The notes: a model not told the origin generated them from the sequence alone. Shown: positions 12,376-20,000, counted from the first letter of the stretch. The stretch is 20,000 nt of DNA from an uncultured virus (IMG/VR IMGVR_UViG_3300033143_002397) (IMGVR_UViG_3300033143_002397); one strand, 5' to 3'. Made by a program: numbers and translations.

Positions 12376-12424
12376 GGTTGATCAATACACCGACAGCTCG
12401 ACAGGCTCCTGATTTGTCCTCACT

Positions 12425-13021
12425 CTAGGCCGCCGTGATGAAGGGCGTCCACTCGTCGGGCACCTGCTCTGGATTGAGCCGTGGTCCGGCCAGGGGCAGC
12501 ACCTTCGGCCGCCTTGGAACGCTGAGCAACATCATCCCCGCCTGCTCCGGGGTCTTGTCAGCCTTCCGGCTGTTGCAAGCGGTGCAGGCCATGACGATGT
12601 TGGTCCAGGTCGTGGGCGTGGTGGACTTCTTCCACTGCGCCTTTGGGACAACGTGCTCATACTCCAGCTGGCTGAGGGGCAGCTTGACACCGCAGTATTG
12701 GCACGAGAAGTTGTCCCGCAGGGCGACGTTGATCTTGGAGAACTTGATCCCTGTCTTCACCCTGCTCACCTGCCGACGCAGAACTGCGACGGCCGGGACC
12801 TTGATGGTGATCGACTCAGCATCCGTCCCGATGACCTGACGCAACGCCCTCCGCAGCTCGGGGAACGTGATCAGGTGGTTGCGGCCGATGACTGTCAGGA
12901 TCTCGTCGTACTGGGCCAGGACCTCCAACTTGCCGTTGAACATCCTCGTCACAGCATCCTTCCAGTCAGTGACCTCGTGGGGTCTGTAGGCTTGGTTCAA
13001 GATCAAGGTCTGTGTCCACAT
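12425..13021 (-). CDS. HNH endonuclease (McrA-like, with LN..Y.P...W..A N-terminal domain)
   Basis: RDNFSCQYCG...EHVVPK...WTNIVMACTACNSRKADKTPEQAGM. Confidence 0.92.
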   Translation of the reverse strand: MWTQTLILNQAYRPHEVTDWKDAVTRMFNGKLEVLAQYDEILTVIGRNHLITFPELRRALRQVIGTDAESITIKVPAVAVLRRQVSRVKTGIKFSKINVALRDNFSCQYCGVKLPLSQLEYEHVVPKAQWKKSTTPTTWTNIVMACTACNSRKADKTPEQAGMMLLSVPRRPKVLPLAGPRLNPEQVPDEWTPFITAA

Positions 13022-13025
13022 GGCT

Positions 13026-13052
13026 TTACCTCAAGCGTTTCTTCTTCTTCAT
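13026..13052 (-). CDS. Putative Lys-rich leader peptide MKKKKRLR
   Basis: GAGGAacc-ATG AAG AAG AAG AAA CGC TTG AGG TAA, ending 4 nt before the HNH ATG. Confidence 0.5.
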   Translation of the reverse strand: MKKKKRLR

Positions 13053-13091
13053 GGTTCCTCTGACGCAGGGACCTCCCGCATCTGACAGGTA

Positions 13092-13133
13092 CAAAAGCAA
13101 GGCCCCCGGCCAGTTAGGTGACCAGGGGCCTTG
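13092..13133 (-). terminator. Intrinsic terminator downstream of tmRNA
   Basis: Minus-strand hairpin CAAGGCCCCUGGUCA/UGGCCGGGGGCCUUG followed by CUUUUG. Confidence 0.8.
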
Positions 13134-13137
13134 ATAG

Positions 13138-13484
13138 TGGAGACGCCGGGAATCGAACCCGGGTCCACGACGATTCCAGTCGTTCCTCGCTCACGTGCGT
13201 AGCCGCTCTACCCTCACGGCGGGGTCCCCAGTCTTCCCTGGGTGCCAGCTCCTGTAAATCTCGACTTTCCCTACTGAAGCGCTCGGGTCAGTCCAGCCCT
13301 AGTGGGTTGATGCCGGTGAGAGGACTACCAGGACGATCTCGTCCAACCGACAGCTCAGGCAGCGATGCCCAAAGCGGATGCGTTGTCGTTCGCAAATACG
13401 TGTTGCCCTGTTGATCGAGGCGGACTGGGCGCCGCCTGCACGTTCAGAATCACCTTCCTTGCCATGTCGAAGCCAATCGTCCCC
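13138..13484 (-). ncRNA. ssrA: tmRNA (one-piece); tag (A)ANDNASALGIAA at 13393-13355
   Basis: 5' GGGGACGAUUGGCUUCGAC pairs with 3' GGACCCGGGUUCGAUUCCCGGCGUCUCCA, including the G3.U70 Ala determinant. Internal reading frame GCG AAC GAC AAC ... GCU GCC UGA. CCA is not encoded (CUA follows). Confidence 0.96.
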
Positions 13485-13550
13485 AGAATGGGCCAGCACT
13501 GAGAAGACCCCGAAGGGACGGCTGACCCACTTGGACTATACACCAATCGG

Positions 13551-13632
13551 TACCCAGGGAGGGACTTGAACCCTCACACCACTAGGGCACGGGAGTTTGA
13601 ACCCCGCGTGTCTGCCATTCCACCACCTGGGC
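13551..13632 (-). tRNA. tRNA-Leu(CAA)
   Basis: GCCCAGG/CCUGGGU acceptor, loop UU-CAA-AC, long variable arm, UUCAAGU T-loop; no encoded CCA. Confidence 0.93.
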
Positions 13633-13633
13633 A

Positions 13634-13730
13634 AAAAGAAGGCCCGAGTGCCGTTGCTCCCTTCCGGGCCTGGCGGCATCGAGCCTAGGGCCGCCGAAGC
13701 GGCTCCACCACTGGGGGTCTAAGCCCCAGA
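13634..13730 (-). ncRNA. ffs: SRP RNA-like (4.5S) gene; domain IV hairpin at 13640-13686 plus two 5' hairpins
   Basis: UGCCG-CCAGG-CCC-GGAA-GGG-AGCAA-CGGCA gives a GGAA tetraloop and CAGG/AGCA symmetric loop, closed by AGGCUCGA/UCGGGCCU and followed by a U-tract. Transcript ends are approximate. Confidence 0.85.
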
Positions 13731-13748
13731 TCACGTACTATACACCGG

Positions 13749-13822
13749 TGGAACCCCAGGGGTTCGAACCCTGAACAACCCGGTTATGAGCCGGGGGCTC
13801 TGACCACTTGAGCTAGAGTTCC
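13749..13822 (-). tRNA. tRNA with CAU anticodon, probably Ile2 (lysidine type); Met not excluded
   Basis: GGAACUC/GGGUUCC acceptor; CCCGG-CU-CAU-AA-CCGGG anticodon arm; no encoded CCA. Confidence 0.85.
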
Positions 13823-13823
13823 G

Positions 13824-13910
13824 TGGTAGCCCCTCCCGGCCTCGAACCGAGATGTCTCGAAGGACCGCGGGTTTTAAGCCCACTGCGTCTACCAATTCCG
13901 CCAAGGGGCC
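13824..13910 (-). tRNA. tRNA-Leu(TAA)
   Basis: GUGGG-CU-UAA-AA-CCCGC, long variable arm, CCA encoded. Confidence 0.93.
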
Positions 13911-13911
13911 G

Positions 13912-13951
13912 TGTTGTGAAACAAGGTTGTTGTGAAACAAGGTTGTTTCAC
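13912..13951. repeat. 16-bp tandem repeat (TGTTGTGAAACAAGGT x2) overlapping a 9-bp inverted repeat (GTGAAACAA-gg-TTGTTTCAC)
   Basis: Read directly: copies at 13912-13927 and 13928-13943; palindrome at 13932-13951. Confidence 0.85.
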
Positions 13952-13952
13952 G

Positions 13953-14027
13953 TGGTGGGAGGAACAGGGATCGAACCTGCGACCATCGGCTTGTAAGGCC
14001 GGCGCTCTACCACTGAGCTACCCTCCC
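13953..14027 (-). tRNA. tRNA-Val(TAC)
   Basis: Loop CU-UAC-AA; GGGAGGG/UCCUCCC acceptor; CCA encoded. Confidence 0.93.
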
Positions 14028-14032
14028 GAAGT

Positions 14033-14329
14033 CTACCAGCGACGCTCTTGCTGGACTAGCCGCCCGAAGAGCTTCCGCAGAGGCTTGATCCCCATGACGA
14101 CGAAGCCTTCTTGGAGGCCGGCGAACTCGCCTCCAGCTCGGGAGATGTAGGTCACCCGAGCCATGAGCCAACGCCGCGTGTAACGGCCTCGCTGGGGGTC
14201 GTATTCCTGGAGCTTGAGCCGGTCACCCACCTCAAAGCCCCGGTCGTCCTTCCGAAGCTCGTAACGCTTGAGGCCGGCTGCGATAGCATTGAAGCCGCTG
14301 GGCCAGGTCTTCAGCTCGTGCTCCTTCAT
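14033..14329 (-). CDS. ASCH/PUA-like protein (DUF3850-like)
   Basis: HELKTWP..F..I..G.K.YELRKDDRGFEVGD.L.L.E pattern. Confidence 0.85.
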   Translation of the reverse strand: MKEHELKTWPSGFNAIAAGLKRYELRKDDRGFEVGDRLKLQEYDPQRGRYTRRWLMARVTYISRAGGEFAGLQEGFVVMGIKPLRKLFGRLVQQERRW

Positions 14330-14634
14330 CTGTACTTCCCTCGCTTCTGCTGGTCCTTGGGACGCTCAATGTTGAGCCTCTTGCTAGGGTCCTGCTTGGC
14401 GATCCAGCGGATCATCTGCCGGAAGCGGTCATCAGCCATGAGGGCCTTGACCGTGCTGTACGTCGTCGCCAGCTCCTTGTTGGAGAAGAAGGCGTGGATA
14501 GCCCGATGACACGAGAGGCAGGAGTCCACCATGACCTCTCCCCCTTTGCCGCCACGACTCCGAGGCACCAGGTGGTGCCGCTTGAGGTGGACTGCGGGTC
14601 TCTTGCAGAAGGGACATGTCGGAAGCTCGACCAT
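14326..14634 (-). CDS. Small HNH endonuclease (YisB-like)
   Basis: CPFCKR...HHLVPRSRGG...CLSCHRAIHAFFSNKELA...WI; YGGTGTA box 10 nt upstream. Confidence 0.85.
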   Translation of the reverse strand: MVELPTCPFCKRPAVHLKRHHLVPRSRGGKGGEVMVDSCLSCHRAIHAFFSNKELATTYSTVKALMADDRFRQMIRWIAKQDPSKRLNIERPKDQQKRGKYR

Positions 14635-14660
14635 AGAAGTCTACTACACCACGAAGAAGT

Positions 14661-14999
14661 CAACGGGTTGTAAGCCGGGTCCTGTCAAGGATGATCATTC
14701 ATCTAGGAGTCGCGTTGCCACGACCCTCAAGCAGCCTACCCGGAAGCGTTGGGCGAGCGACCCCCTTCCTGTCTGGCCTTGCTTCAGATGGGTGCGCCGT
14801 GCCATCCCTGTTGCCAGGAACGCGGTGGGCTCTTACCCCACCCTTTCACCCTTACCCTGTGGCCGAAGCGACAGGGCGGTTTGCTTTCTGCTGCGTTTTC
14901 CTCGGGGTCACCCCCGACCGGGCGTTACCCGGCATCCTGCTCTGTGAAGCCCGGACTTTCCTCCCGCAGCCGAAGCTGCCGGCGATCATCTGCTCCCGT
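14661..14999 (-). ncRNA. rnpB: RNase P RNA, bacterial type A
   Basis: GAGGAAAGUCCGGGC (P4 5'), GGUAACGCC, AGAAAGCAAACCGCC, GGGUGAAAGGGUGGGGUAAGAGCCCACC, AGCAAGGCCA, GGGUAGGCUGCUUGAG (L15 GGU), UAGAUGAAUGAUC, and ACAGGACCCGGCUUA (P4 3'); P1 is CAACGGG/CCCGUUG. Confidence 0.96.
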
Positions 15000-15085
<86 letters not shown>

Positions 15086-15086
15086 G

Positions 15087-15518
15087 TCATCGACACAACC
15101 GCTTAGACATCTTGATGGCCGCCTTGCTCACCTCATCGTCCTTCCAGGAGATGGTGTTGCCATCCTTGTCCTTCACGGGGTTCTGAATCTGGTTGTGATA
15201 GTCCCAGCCCATCCAGAAGCACCAGAGCCAAAAGACACCCACGTCGAGGTGCTTTTGCACCAGCAAAGGCCAGCCCTTGGAGCGCTCCTTGCCCTGGCCG
15301 TAGACCTCCGTCTTACCGTTGTAGGTGAAGCTCGACTTGCCGTAGCCCATCTGAAGAAGCACGGCACCGGTGGCGCCACACCCCCTGGGCAAGCTCTTGT
15401 CTTCGCCCAAGCCTGACCAGTCGAACAAGCAGCCCCCGCGAACGATCTGGATGCCTTGAGCCCGAGCTTGCTCGATGGCGTGCTCGATGGCCTTGAAGGC
15501 GTGCTGCTTTTTGACCAT
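15087..15518 (-). CDS. Hypothetical protein
   Basis: 143-aa ORF filling the gap between two tRNAs; YGGTGTA box 12 nt upstream. Confidence 0.75.
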   Translation of the reverse strand: MVKKQHAFKAIEHAIEQARAQGIQIVRGGCLFDWSGLGEDKSLPRGCGATGAVLLQMGYGKSSFTYNGKTEVYGQGKERSKGWPLLVQKHLDVGVFWLWCFWMGWDYHNQIQNPVKDKDGNTISWKDDEVSKAAIKMSKRLCR

Positions 15519-15539
15519 GCACCTTGTTGGTACACCGGT

Positions 15540-15614
15540 TGGCTGGGGCGGCAGGGTTCGAACCTGCGACGACCGGGTTCAAAGCCCGGCATTCTGCCAC
15601 TGAATTACACCCCA
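15540..15614 (-). tRNA. tRNA-Gln(TTG)
   Basis: U1-A72, G73; CCGGG-CU-UUG-AA-CCCGG; CCA encoded. Confidence 0.93.
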
Positions 15615-15620
15615 AAATAG

Positions 15621-15692
15621 TCACTGGAGCCGGGATCGAACCGGCGACGCCCGCCGTATGAGAGCGGCGCTCTGCCTCTGAGCTACCCAGCG
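15621..15692 (-). tRNA. tRNA-Met(CAT), probably elongator
   Basis: Loop CU-CAU-AC; 1-72 is paired and the anticodon stem lacks the GGG/CCC run, so it is not an initiator; no encoded CCA. Confidence 0.85.
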
Positions 15693-15734
15693 TTCTGCGG
15701 AATGCTCTTTTAGTCCGCCTAGTTCGAGAACCAC

Positions 15735-16685
15735 GTGAAGACTCCCATCGCGAAAATTGAAGTAGGCTCTTCGACAGCCCTGAGCATCCTGTTGGTCGAG
15801 GACAACCCGACCGACCGAGAGCTGCTGCGCTACCTCCTTGAGGCTCGCCTTCACCCCTCGTCCCAGTTCTTTGAGGCGTCCAACCTCCAGGCGGCATTCC
15901 TTCACCTGGAACAGAACAACATCGACTGCGTGTTGCTCGACCTACGCTTGCCTGACTCAGCCGGCAAGGAAACGTTCGAGAAGCTCGCCGAGCTGTACCC
16001 CACGATCCCCATCATCGTCGTGACCCACACGAAGGATCGCGAGCTGGCCATCGAGATGATCAAGGCTGGCGCCGCTGACTACCTACTGAAGAGCTACACG
16101 GACGAGGACGCCATCTTCCAACGGATCATGCTCGCTGTCACCCGACACAAGCAGAACGTCCGGGTGTCACCCGATCAGGCTGGCATCTTCCAACGGCTCG
16201 ACAAGGCCCAGGCCAGCATCACAACCGCTCGACGACGACAGAGCCAAACAGAGCTTCAGGCCGCATCAGCAGACACAAACCACGCTATGGCCGACGTGTC
16301 CCGCCAGCTCTTCACCGATGTTCAGAGCCTCAAGCAGGTACTAGGTGAGCAGGCTGTCCGGCAAGAGCACATGCTGGACAGCGTGAAGATCTTGAACACG
16401 GAACTGCTTCACGGCCGCTCTGGGCGCCCATCCATGAAATCGCAGATGAACCTACTCGACCACCGCATGACAGCCGTAGAGGTCGGCGTGGGTAAGATGA
16501 AGCAGGATGCTGACGAGGCCGGGGACACCCAGCGAAGGGAAGCCCTCCAGCTCACAACAGCGAGGTGGAGCAACCGCACAAAGATCCTCGTCGCTGTCTT
16601 GGCTCTCGTGGGGGTCATCTCCACCGCAGCCGCCACCTACTTCGCGACCACCCACAAGCCCCCGGCAGCAGGAGCCCCGAAGTGA
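15735..16685 (+). CDS. Response regulator: receiver domain, helical/coiled-coil region, C-terminal transmembrane helix
   Basis: ILLVEDN, VLLDLRLPD (phospho-Asp), IIVVT, GAADYLLK; C-terminal ILVAVLALVGVISTAAATYFA. Confidence 0.88.
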   Translation: MKTPIAKIEVGSSTALSILLVEDNPTDRELLRYLLEARLHPSSQFFEASNLQAAFLHLEQNNIDCVLLDLRLPDSAGKETFEKLAELYPTIPIIVVTHTKDRELAIEMIKAGAADYLLKSYTDEDAIFQRIMLAVTRHKQNVRVSPDQAGIFQRLDKAQASITTARRRQSQTELQAASADTNHAMADVSRQLFTDVQSLKQVLGEQAVRQEHMLDSVKILNTELLHGRSGRPSMKSQMNLLDHRMTAVEVGVGKMKQDADEAGDTQRREALQLTTARWSNRTKILVAVLALVGVISTAAATYFATTHKPPAAGAPK

Positions 16686-17758
16686 CAAGCTCTGAGCACG
16701 AACGAGCCAGAGGCGAAGCCATCCTGGCCGCCATCCCCGACATCATCTTCGAGGTCGACAGCGAAGGGCGCTTCCTGTTCGTACACGCCCGACCGGGCCA
16801 GACCTTCGTCGAGAACGGCAAGATCATCGGCAAGCTCGTGACCGAGCTACTGCCCGAAACGGTTGCCTCTCAATGCGTGGACTGCATCACTGAGGTCCTC
16901 CGAACCCAAGAGGTCCAGACCCTCGACTACACGCTCCCCTACCCCAAAGGCGAGAGGTACTTTCGAGCACATCTGGGACCATCAGCCAAGGGCACTGTCG
17001 TGGCTGTCGTACGCAACGTCACGTCGGACAAGTGCCACCGGAGCAGGCTTGAACATCAGACCGAGCAGCTCCTAGAGGCCAACGAGAGCCTGGAGCAGTT
17101 CGTCCACGTAGCCTCACATGACCTACGTGAACCTCTCACCGGCATCGCTGGGTTCGCCACCCTTCTCCGCAAGCGCTACGGCGACGAGCTAGACGACAGC
17201 GGCCAGCACTTCCTGAACGAGATCATCGCTGGGACCAAGAGGATGGAGCAGAAGATCGAAGACCTCCTGGCCCTATCCCGAGCTGGGCGTGGGACACCCA
17301 ACGGTCCCTTTTCTCTGGGCTCAGCTATCGAGGAAGCTCGTCGTAGCCTCGTCAGGGCCTTCAAAGAATCGGGGGCAGTCCTCCAAACAAGCGAGCTACC
17401 CACGGTCCGAGGGGACCGCAGCATGATCGCCCAGGTCTTCCAGAACCTCTTCAGCAACAGCATCAAGTATCACCCGGAAGGAGTGAAGCCAGTCATCGAG
17501 ATCGAGGTCCTACCCGACTCAGACCCCAAGATGGTCCACGTCGCGGTCACCGACAACGGTATTGGATTCTGCATGGACCACGCTGACCGGATCTTCGGGA
17601 TCTTCCAGCGGCTCTACACGATAGAGCAGTACCCAGGGACGGGCATCGGACTCGCCATCGCCAAGAAGATCGTCGAGAAGCAAGGAGGTCGTATCTGGGC
17701 CTCTTCGGAGCCCTCGAAAGGGTCCACGTTTCACTTCACCTTGCAGAAGGCCACGTAA
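16682..17758 (+). CDS. Cytoplasmic PAS-domain sensor histidine kinase (Cph1/bacteriophytochrome-type kinase core)
   Basis: GTG start overlapping the upstream stop (GTGA). PAS (ILAAIPDIIFEVDSEGRF), H-box ASHDLREPL, N-box FQNLFSNSIKY, G1 DNGIG, F-box IFGIFQRL, G2 GTGIGLA. Confidence 0.93.
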   Translation: MTSSEHERARGEAILAAIPDIIFEVDSEGRFLFVHARPGQTFVENGKIIGKLVTELLPETVASQCVDCITEVLRTQEVQTLDYTLPYPKGERYFRAHLGPSAKGTVVAVVRNVTSDKCHRSRLEHQTEQLLEANESLEQFVHVASHDLREPLTGIAGFATLLRKRYGDELDDSGQHFLNEIIAGTKRMEQKIEDLLALSRAGRGTPNGPFSLGSAIEEARRSLVRAFKESGAVLQTSELPTVRGDRSMIAQVFQNLFSNSIKYHPEGVKPVIEIEVLPDSDPKMVHVAVTDNGIGFCMDHADRIFGIFQRLYTIEQYPGTGIGLAIAKKIVEKQGGRIWASSEPSKGSTFHFTLQKAT

Positions 17759-18282
17759 TGCCTAACGAAAAAGTCAGCGTCCTCTTGGTCGAGGACAGCC
17801 GCACCGACGCAGAACTCATCGCCGAGGCGCTCAAAGACTCAAAGCTGCCTCATCGACTAGACCTGGCCACCGACGGAATCGCGGCCCTGAAGTACCTCGC
17901 GGACAACGACCGGCCACACCTCATCCTGCTCGACCTCAACCTCCCCAAAAAGTCGGGGTTGGAGGTCCTTCGAGAGATCAAGCAAGACACCGACCTCTGC
18001 ATCATTCCCGTCGTCATCCTGACCAACTCCGAGTCCAAGAAGGATGTGACCCAGTGCTACGAGAGCTTCTGCACGACCTACATCCGCAAGCCGTTGCACT
18101 TCGAGGACTGGGTAGCCACCCTCAACTGCCTGTCGCACTTCCTGTTTCGAGTAGCGACACTCCCCCATGAATCCCCGCTGCTCAAGCGACGAGGTTGCCT
18201 CGTGAGTGCCTGGGTCGAGCCCAGGTCGTCAAGGCGGCCCCCTCCCAAAAAGAAGCGGGCCAAGAAGCGGGCCAAGAAGTAG
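17758..18282 (+). CDS. Single-domain response regulator (Rcp1-like) with basic C-terminal tail
   Basis: VLLVEDS, LILLDLNLPKKSGLEVL, IPVVILT, YIRKP; TAATG coupling to the kinase. Confidence 0.92.
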   Translation: MPNEKVSVLLVEDSRTDAELIAEALKDSKLPHRLDLATDGIAALKYLADNDRPHLILLDLNLPKKSGLEVLREIKQDTDLCIIPVVILTNSESKKDVTQCYESFCTTYIRKPLHFEDWVATLNCLSHFLFRVATLPHESPLLKRRGCLVSAWVEPRSSRRPPPKKKRAKKRAKK

Positions 18283-19441: not shown

Positions 19442-19468
19442 AGGATGTTTCGATGAGGGGCCTAGGAC

Positions 19469-19738
19469 ATGGACATGGTCACACGAGTGGTGCGACGCTT
19501 CATGGCTTTCAAGTACGTGCCGAAAGAGAAGAAGAAGGCGAAGGTGGACCGCCTCACGAAGGTCATCCGAGAGAAGACCGGCGTGAGCCGTGGGACCGCC
19601 GAGGACATCGCCGACGCCATCGTGCGAAACCGCGATGTCGAACGCCTGGCACGCCAAAAGAGCTGGCCCATCGAGGACGGAACCATCGAAGGGCCGAAGG
19701 GCCAGATCACGATCAAGGCTATACGGGACCAGCTGTGA
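19469..19738 (+). CDS. Hypothetical basic protein
   Basis: 89-aa ORF coupled (GTGA) to the next gene. Confidence 0.7.
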   Translation: MDMVTRVVRRFMAFKYVPKEKKKAKVDRLTKVIREKTGVSRGTAEDIADAIVRNRDVERLARQKSWPIEDGTIEGPKGQITIKAIRDQL

Positions 19739-20000
19739 GGATCCTGATCGTCGAGGACAACCCCGCCGACCGCGAACTACTCGTCTTCACGCTCCAAGAG
19801 CACTTCAAGACTGAGGCCAAGTTCCGCGAAGCATACGACCTGGAGGGAGCCCACAGCTACCTCCAGCGAGGTGGGGTTGACGCTGTCGTCCTCGACCTCC
19901 AGCTACCAGACAGCTCGGGCCTCGATACCTTCACGAGGATCCACAAGGCGTACCCTCATCTGCCCATCATCGTTGTGACCCACAACATCGACCTGGACCT
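19735..20000 (+). CDS. Response regulator receiver domain (runs off the right end); paralogue of 15735-16685
   Basis: Manual translation from GTG 19735: MRILIVEDNPADRELL...VDAVVLDLQLPDSSGLDTF...YPHLPIIVVTHN. Confidence 0.9.
   Translation, partial: MRILIVEDNPADRELLVFTLQEHFKTEAKFREAYDLEGAHSYLQRGGVDAVVLDLQLPDSSGLDTFTRIHKAYPHLPIIVVTHNIDLD

Follow-up and report, generated by a model that had tools for sequence, protein, structure and literature searches.

A putative helix-8-only signal recognition particle RNA in the tRNA island of an uncultured virus

We describe here a putative non-coding RNA found in a 20,000-nt stretch of DNA from an uncultured virus (IMG/VR IMGVR_UViG_3300033143_002397), a stretch to which we refer as a whole, at its full length, as the window. 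The window has a G+C content of about 60% and its minus strand encodes an NAD-dependent DNA ligase, a class II ribonucleotide reductase, clamp-loader subunits, GroEL, RtcB, a 4x DUF1508 protein and HNH endonucleases. These genes share their strand with an RNA island of 13 tRNAs, a transfer-messenger RNA (tmRNA) and a complete ribonuclease P (RNase P) RNA. Within this island, tRNA-Met(CAT) and tRNA-Leu(CAA) enclose, with hardly any spare bases, an element that resembles the signal recognition particle (SRP) RNA. The original prediction, made from the sequence, took this element for a truncated SRP RNA with its own promoter box, either a minimal 4.5S RNA or a decoy of the SRP protein Ffh. All the features that it listed were recovered, at the positions it gave and on the minus strand (Table 1).

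The RNA is about 97 nt long, lies entirely on the minus strand and is composed of three hairpins. The last of these, 47 nt in length, has a 13-bp lower stem with a bulged C13648, followed by a 5-nt/5-nt internal loop (CCAGG/AGCAA) and, at the apex, a 3-bp CCC/GGG stem capped by a GGAA tetraloop at 13662-13665. Of the two hairpins on its 5' side, the second consists of GCCGC/UUCG/GCGGC plus two more G-C pairs past a bulged A. The U-tract that follows the 47-nt hairpin may serve as the tail of a leaky terminator; it may also be the leader that RNase P removes from the 5' end of tRNA-Leu.

Table 1. Position of the SRP-like RNA, its parts and its neighbours in the window
Feature	Position	Strand	Basis or remark
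tRNA-Met(CAT), upstream neighbour of the SRP-like RNA	13747-13822	-	ARAGORN; Rfam 60.9 bits
GGTGTATAGT box, candidate -10-type promoter element	13737-13746	-	Two exact copies in the window; kept in L124 and L130
Variable spacer, 7 nt, box to RNA body	13730-13736	-	Differs in relatives
5' hairpin 1, 6 bp, 7-nt loop CUUAGAC	13711-13729	-	Minimum free energy (MFE) folds
5' hairpin 2, 7 bp, one bulged A, UUCG loop	13688-13706	-	MFE folds
SRP helix-8-like hairpin, 47 nt	13640-13686	-	Rfam local match, motif, folds
U-tract UCUUUUU	13633-13639	-	Read from sequence; kept in L124 and L130; abuts tRNA-Leu
tRNA-Leu(CAA), downstream neighbour of the SRP-like RNA	13549-13632	-	ARAGORN; Rfam 50.8 bits
GGTGTATAGT box, second copy	13535-13544	-	About 50 nt before tmRNA, ahead of the tmRNA leader; kept in L130
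tmRNA (tag ANDNASALGIAA)	13135-13484	-	Rfam 113 bits, ARAGORN; end of RNA island
Strong terminator-like hairpin, 15 bp, right after tmRNA	13098-13133	-	Terminator scan
Class A RNase P RNA, complete	14657-15001	-	Rfam 265.3 bits, model positions 1-367

Both folding and an Rfam match argue for the proposed identity of the 47-nt hairpin, a truncated SRP S domain (helix 8) with intact symmetric loop and GGAA tetraloop. The search with SRP covariance models that had been suggested as a check succeeded in part: over the 271 bases searched, it returned a local helix-8 match of 30 nt, to positions 192-221 of the Archaea_SRP family (29.6 bits, E = 2.2e-5), in which 30 of 30 positions agree with the consensus. 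A GNRA tetraloop on a short G-C stem, by which small SRP RNAs are recognized, is present. So is the symmetric loop CAGG/AGCA, with its invariant A-C and G-G/A non-canonical pairs, and it is identical to the consensus; a symmetric loop with non-canonical pairs is a trait ascribed to SRP RNAs in one description of their structure (PMC4605306). The 18-nt core pattern CAGGNCCGGAAGGNAGCA occurs a single time in the window, at 13655-13672 (minus strand), where 0.03 occurrences are expected with up to two mismatches and any match at all appears in 5 of 200 shuffled sequences. The element has in common with the small SRP RNA (4.5S RNA, ffs, RF00169) a 3-bp stem capped by GGAA, the symmetric CAGG/AGCA loop and, beneath it, a helix that covaries. 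It differs in that the hairpin is only 47 nt long, follows two unrelated 5' hairpins and belongs to a phage-like element, inside a tRNA array. By analogy, the phage RNA would have the same partner as 4.5S RNA, namely the M domain of Ffh.

Evidence for constraint comes from two syntenic relatives, L124 and L130, retrieved among 15 loci in a metagenome scan with the box and the core combined. The other 13 loci are not relatives; they correspond to ordinary SRP RNAs of cellular type, upstream of which TGTATAGT occurs by chance or as a promoter-like sequence. Identity to the window is about 84% for L124, over 16289-15001 and 14628-13562, and about 74% overall for L130. Along the 95 nt that extend from hairpin 1 to the U-tract, L124 agrees with the window at 95/95 positions and L130 at 94/95, and one inserted G is common to the two. 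This insertion changes the bulged C into a 1x1 A.C mismatch and leaves stability unchanged, and the sole substitution in the RNA body, G13719 to A in L130, falls in the loop of hairpin 1. Hairpin 2 is identical in both relatives and hairpin 1 is identical in L124, the 5' hairpins and linkers being conserved as strongly as the SRP hairpin. Flanking tRNAs and open reading frames (ORFs) are mostly 72-86% identical (tRNA-Met, 65/76; tRNA-Leu(TAA), 69/87; DUF3850 ORF, 237/297; HNH-like ORF, 267/309), and only tRNA-Val is comparable to the RNA body (73/75, 96%). Such near-identity amid diverged flanks indicates that the whole RNA of about 97 nt, 5' hairpins included, is one constrained unit under selection. 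We discarded a coding explanation: a 50-aa ORF at 13582-13734 overlaps tRNA-Leu and, because the 1-nt indel of the relatives would shift its frame, we consider the region as non-coding. For 12400-15100, no matching RNA run was found. Contigs from four DNA runs gave mostly tRNA or RNase P look-alikes of other organisms; one 455-nt contig (run X3) covers 13600-13733 with eight differences, a DNA match with no bearing on transcription.

Similar hairpins are found in viral contigs beyond this lineage. A scan of IMG/VR with the core, allowing GGAA or GAAA as its loop, gave 63 instances at 61 viral-contig loci. In 43 of the instances, three or more successive pairs adjoin the loop; three of these, all at L113, are collagen-like coding repeats. 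A tRNA on the same strand lies within 150 nt in 14 of the 43 instances with a hairpin, versus none of the 20 without. Short, self-closing versions are located between or just behind tRNAs in contigs of 46-436 kb (L007, L014, L027, L036, L037, L110, L117 and L120), about 60 nt from a tRNA in L017 (417 kb) and, in L041, within a tRNA array at about 170 nt from the nearest tRNA. In L006 and L007, the tRNA ahead of the hairpin is tRNA-Gly. These helix-8-only hairpins, together with that of L035, have the same core, tRNA-array setting and strand as the window element, and also short self-closing stems, often with a U-rich tail. Unlike the window lineage, they have no upstream hairpin, a single one or different ones, and L027, L041 and L117 retain a small asymmetric loop. 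Viral versions can be arranged in a series. At its fullest end, G030, G031 and G032 carry nearly full 4.5S-like RNAs above the Rfam gathering score (57.7-58.7 bits, model positions 1-97); hairpins in the middle retain a small asymmetric loop (G024, G001 and G035); at the shorter end, a single A.C mismatch remains in G023 and in the relatives of the window, and stems are perfect in G011, G021 and G022.

Homologues and their covariation had been proposed as a check in the original prediction; in the copies collected here, the helix flanking the symmetric loop covaries across 16 distinct sequences. We aligned 17 phage copies without gaps, 16 of them distinct; the core columns are invariant because the copies were found through the core. 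In the flanking helix, 94.6% of cells are paired versus 63.8% in shuffles and 29 cells are changed on both sides versus 8.3 in shuffles, neither value being reached in any of 500 shuffles, with copies that were hand-picked by eye from the motif hits, a choice that favours pairing. Each of the three pairs next to the symmetric loop is formed in 16 of 16 copies, with five to eight double changes, and pairing falls to 26-48% when the 3' partners are slid by one to three columns.

These results bear on a first alternative, in which the hairpin would have no SRP role and would be a captured ffs fragment reused for structure or processing, whether to terminate or attenuate transcription incompletely, to block nucleases, or to provide spacing that helps RNase P and RNase E in cutting the poly-tRNA transcript. 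A U-tract after the hairpin and a tRNA on either side are what such a role would call for, U-rich tails accompany other phage copies too (for example, L035 and L036), the fold energy is unremarkable and many relatives dispense with the element. A structural hairpin, however, has no need for non-Watson-Crick loop strands and a GNRA loop, yet these are invariant, within a set selected by motif, while the helix changes; moreover, the 5' hairpins and linkers are equally conserved. The hairpin and UUCUUUUU are present at the 3' end, and a simple terminator scan made no call there, the hairpin having internal loops. Since tRNA-Leu(CAA) follows directly, with no box of its own, termination at the U-tract would be leaky at most, and an efficient terminator is improbable at this place. 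We consider a purely structural role quite unlikely.

Another alternative would make the element the remnant of an integration site, that is, a piece of ffs carried in the attP of a temperate phage. One report documents ffs as a phage attachment site (PMC12540744), and several of the IMG/VR motif matches are full-length cellular-type SRP RNAs on short or provirus-labelled contigs. However, the piece present here is the apex of the RNA, forming a self-contained hairpin with a lower stem found in no cellular genome, and no integrase family was detected among the 22 window ORFs scanned. The location of such hairpins in tRNA arrays, on the tRNA strand, recurs in many unrelated large viral contigs, and relatives with direct terminal repeats resemble free phage genomes. 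An attP origin thus appears highly improbable. Among cultured phages (INPHARED), blastn found no match for the 114-nt element, nor for L013; the fuller phage 4.5S-like RNA of L021 matched only contigs labelled 'Acinetobacter phage MD-2021a', which we suspect to be bacterial.

The claim that the RNA has its own promoter box stood in part. Exactly two copies of the GGTGTATAGT box are present in the window, both on the minus strand, where 0.27 are expected and where two or more occur in 4 of 200 shuffles. The box is kept in L124 and L130, and the 6-7 nt that separate it from the RNA body (7 nt in the window, 6 nt in the relatives) are wholly different. Because the box is duplicated before the tmRNA leader and is conserved ahead of a variable spacer, the promoter idea gains indirect support: a -10 element with a start site behind it would leave just such a succession of fixed box, free spacer and fixed RNA, and transcription likely starts at or near the 3' end of the spacer. 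On the other side, there is no -35 element, and a promoter scan found no sigma-70-like site, with -35 and -10 hexamers 16-18 nt apart, in 12900-15800. The conserved box includes a -10-like TATAGT and, followed by a variable spacer, would still be compatible with a -10-only or phage-specific promoter. The tmRNA leader behind the second box is able to form a hairpin, and this box and the 15-bp hairpin after tmRNA together mark off the 3' end of the RNA island. In another locus, L100 (G021, a 416,714-bp viral record), a consensus TTGACA-17 nt-TATAAA promoter lies about 70 nt upstream of a helix-8-only hairpin, which independently supports, at the level of sequence, the idea that hairpins of this kind can be transcribed as separate units.

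The two 5' hairpins had been proposed to form a 'mini-Alu' domain joined to the S domain. Our analysis speaks against this architecture: SRP models give no alignment to 13688-13729 even at E-values of up to 10, no 3' strand able to form helix 5 is present, and the hairpins are lineage-specific. According to one description of the Alu domain (PMC4605306), its traits are a UGUNR motif between helices 3 and 4, loop-loop pairs and a join to helix 5. Here, the linker between the hairpins reads UGGUGG, which does not match UGUNR, and no complementarity exists between the loops CUUAGAC and UUCG. A covariance model covering the entire RNA, built on three near-identical sequences and run on 35 other large viral records, recovered the SRP hairpin in 16 of the 35, its full-length matches being driven by that hairpin. 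No homologous 5' domain was found in the 35 records: the columns of hairpin 1 fell on the T or anticodon arms of the preceding tRNA or on unrelated hairpins, and the small hairpin with a 7-nt loop that precedes the SRP hairpin in G022 is unrelated in sequence. Both 5' hairpins and the GGTGTATAGT box are specific to the lineage of the window, L124 and L130. In principle, CUUAG in the first loop could pair with a downstream CUAGG, as suggested; this would conflict with four pairs of the MFE stems, and one of its own pairs is lost in L130.

The loop of hairpin 1 also has the layout of an anticodon loop (pyrimidine-U, a triplet, purine-N), with the triplet UAG in the window and UAA in L130, and both its arm and the bases behind it bear some similarity to the anticodon and variable region in the tRNA-Leu genes of the window. 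The 5' domain may be a tRNA-Leu relic, a possibility that we do not put forward as a claim.

We next consider what the RNA might do. No match to the Ffh M domain or SRP54 GTPase families was found among the window ORFs; PF02978 (Ffh M domain) scored above its cut-off in none of 32 related or SRP-hairpin-bearing viral records and PF00448 (SRP54 GTPase) in none of 35 viral records, while control searches with both families matched 14 of 14 cellular genomes. Since the phage records examined have no Ffh/SRP54-type GTPase, any SRP role must pass through host Ffh. We therefore read the element, with a probability of about one half, as a non-coding phage RNA of about 97 nt whose 3' hairpin would act as a minimal SRP RNA, reduced to helix 8, that binds host Ffh. 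It would be transcribed on the strand of the tRNA/tmRNA/RNase P RNA island, probably from its own -10-like box, with a possible contribution of read-through from the upstream tRNA. Its 3' end would be generated by RNase P cleavage at the 5' end of tRNA-Leu, by partial termination at the U-tract, or by both. The CAGG/AGCA symmetric loop, which is the surface used universally for docking of the SRP54/Ffh M domain, would then dock the M domain of host Ffh and the GGAA tetraloop would tether FtsY, so that the Ffh-RNA particle should recognize cargo and recruit FtsY. Most likely, it would stand in for the host SRP RNA or back it up, and in this way maintain, or retune, the targeting of membrane proteins during infection, as part of one kit with the phage tRNAs, tmRNA and RNase P RNA.

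This scheme borrows from work on the cellular SRP, whose RNA serves the delivery of membrane proteins in all cells. In one account, the 54-kDa subunit is bound at the two internal loops of helix 8 and FtsY is held by the apical tetraloop, which makes complex formation about 100-fold faster (PMC4091067). Another describes a subsequent shift of the NG dimer to the RNA's distal end, where an RNA base triggers GTP hydrolysis (PMC5454536). In the window RNA, the Ffh-binding symmetric loop and the tetraloop are kept and the distal site is gone.

Such a loss is also what one would expect from a decoy or brake of Ffh, which would bind host Ffh tightly in competition with 4.5S RNA, trap SRP-FtsY complexes or slow their hand-over, and thereby dampen membrane-protein biogenesis. 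The contact elements for Ffh and FtsY are retained and the rod is lost with the distal site, which, according to the account just cited (PMC5454536), is needed for GTPase activation; besides, no Ffh or FtsY was found in the phage records examined, and the candidate promoter would permit high expression. However, G030, G031 and G032 carry fuller 4.5S-like RNAs scoring above the gathering score, for which a pure decoy would have no use, and the neighbouring RNase P RNA, tmRNA and tRNAs are complete and supportive. Phages, moreover, require membrane insertion themselves, for holins and similar proteins. We regard a decoy as unlikely. Because the neighbouring RNAs are complete and supportive and some phages carry full-length versions, a surrogate or retuner appears more likely than a pure decoy.

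Several observations weigh against the reading as a minimal SRP RNA. To begin with the element itself, no SRP family attains its Rfam gathering score in the window, which is the other side of the model search reported above. The three-hairpin MFE of -49.6 kcal/mol is unexceptional (z = -0.74, with 47 of 200 shuffles at least as stable). The canonical asymmetric loop, in which the 5' strand is 2-3 nt longer about 3 bp below the symmetric loop, was not found in the hairpin, as the original prediction had observed: the stem is continuous and has in its place only the bulged C13648, on the 3' strand and five pairs from the symmetric loop; L124 and L130 have an A.C mismatch there. The asymmetric loop likewise contacts SRP54 according to one source, which also mentions that some basidiomycetes have genuine SRP RNAs with truncated 5' strands (PMC4605306). 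At that loop, the window counts 0 nt in the 5' strand and 1 nt in the 3' strand; the eukaryotic RNAs are full-length, with changes associated with changes in Srp54, whereas the window has a stand-alone hairpin that would have to fit an unaltered host Ffh. Neither folding nor alignment shows a conventional full-length rod, the outcome named beforehand as refuting the idea of a truncated RNA, which withstood that check. No helix-5 rod and no distal GTPase-activating site are present, the hairpin closing on itself after 13 bp and being followed by the U-tract and the tRNA; without this site, the full targeting cycle may be impaired. Finally, a 28-mer including the extra fourth G-C pair of the inner helix has no match in 185,579 species genomes, which means that cellular Ffh is never seen with exactly such a geometry; a 32-mer of the core likewise has no exact match in cellular genomes.

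The comparative evidence has its own share of adverse points, beyond the hand-picking of the aligned copies. The near-identity of the three copies of the window lineage could reflect the recent transfer of a cassette instead of selection, and, because these copies are nearly identical, there is no covariation for the 5' hairpins. The element is sporadic: among 20 RtcB relatives, many of which are fragments, four have a convincing SRP-like hairpin (E up to 1.2e-4), three a weak one (E = 0.099-0.71) and 13 none. Most matches of the pattern AGGNNNGNRANNNAGCA in these 20 relatives have no complementary stem and were dismissed as chance. As to the nature of the carrier, the window looks like part of a huge phage, or at least of a phage-like giant mobile element, a reading drawn from its gene content and from IMG/VR relatives with terminal repeats. 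Relatives of the window RtcB, 21 in number and 58-68% identical, are encoded by IMG/VR viral contigs that reach 619 kb; direct terminal repeats bound five of these contigs. No structural gene is present in the window, and a search of relatives for Terminase_6N (PF03237) was negative in five of five; we expect the terminases of huge phages to be too divergent for this model, which would make the negative uninformative.

Some of these relatives associate the SRP-like hairpin with the other stable RNAs. Upstream of RtcB, G001 has the trio of SRP-like hairpin, tmRNA and RNase P RNA, and G011 has the SRP-like hairpin and tmRNA, with no RNase P RNA found there. Class A RNase P RNAs above the gathering score are present in six other viral records (G001, G004, G013, G030, G031 and G033). 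In L124, the RNase P RNA is cleanly missing: 21 nt replace window positions 14629-15000, between tRNA-Leu(TAG) and the HNH-like ORF. Among cultured phages, MW495066.1 (Microcystis phage MaAM05) contains at 115323-115472 an unannotated sequence with 76% identity, over about 140 nt, to the conserved core of the window RNase P RNA; this jumbo cyanophage may thus carry an RNase P RNA-like gene.

A peculiar case is L121 1501-1864 (+), that is, G033:C1:56887-57250, a class A RNase P RNA (272.5 bits) in a 480,838-bp record labelled provirus in IMG/VR. The tip of its P12 has a 21-nt insertion that is a helix-8 look-alike, with CAGG/AGCA, a GAAA tetraloop and a small asymmetric loop, and a local Archaea_SRP match is obtained at 1622-1653 (25.1 bits, E = 0.0043). 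This RNA may be an RNase P/SRP chimera. Because the P12 tip of G033 is itself a helix-8 look-alike, one may imagine that huge phages graft helix 8 onto other RNAs as a portable 'Ffh handle', the hairpin being an address label and not the cargo. The carriers would be the two-hairpin 5' domain in the window, the RNase P RNA in G033 and, elsewhere, the tRNA a few bases upstream. Through such a handle, phage RNAs would gain access to host Ffh and, by way of it, to the ribosome exit site or to the membrane receptor FtsY; alternatively, Ffh would serve them as a protective cap. We find this generalization very doubtful.

The surroundings of the SRP-like RNA may have been rearranged. HNH endonuclease ORFs at 12425-13021 (-) and 14326-14634 (-) bracket the stretch from tRNA-Val to tmRNA, which includes the SRP-like RNA, and L124 has about 500 nt extra between tRNA-Leu(CAA) and tmRNA. 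These two observations suggest that the island has been remodelled by homing-type elements. Midway through the tRNA island, 15735-18282 (+) encodes two response regulators and a PAS histidine kinase on the other strand, and a further receiver domain is found at the end of the window, at 19453-19998 (+); these genes would constitute a phage-borne two-component system.

Phage copies of host stable RNAs have precedents. In phage T4, the tRNA cluster includes the species 1 and species 2 RNAs, two stable RNAs that are not tRNAs and are freed by tRNA-processing enzymes. Like the RNA described here, they lie within a phage tRNA cluster; to our knowledge they contain no SRP motif. The tRNA arrays and tmRNAs of huge phages (Al-Shayeb et al. 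2020, PMC7162821) follow the same logic, and the main text of that study, in which tmRNA is present, contains none of the terms 'SRP', 'signal recognition', '4.5S' or 'RNase P'. In the open-access literature, we found no description of a phage-encoded SRP RNA, nor of a phage-encoded RNase P RNA.

The island of the window contains a complete RNase P RNA, a tmRNA and the SRP-like RNA. In bacteria, SRP RNA, RNase P RNA and tmRNA make up, beside rRNA and tRNA, the classic set of stable RNAs. With all three in one island, giant phages would seem to take over or supplement the RNA machinery of their host to a greater extent than through tRNAs and tmRNA. Natural helix-8-only versions would constitute an evolutionary deletion series, in which the Ffh loop and the FtsY tether are kept, the distal GTPase switch is shed and the asymmetric loop is progressively lost. 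Two questions would thereby become testable: how small an SRP RNA can be and still work, and whether viruses retune co-translational targeting.

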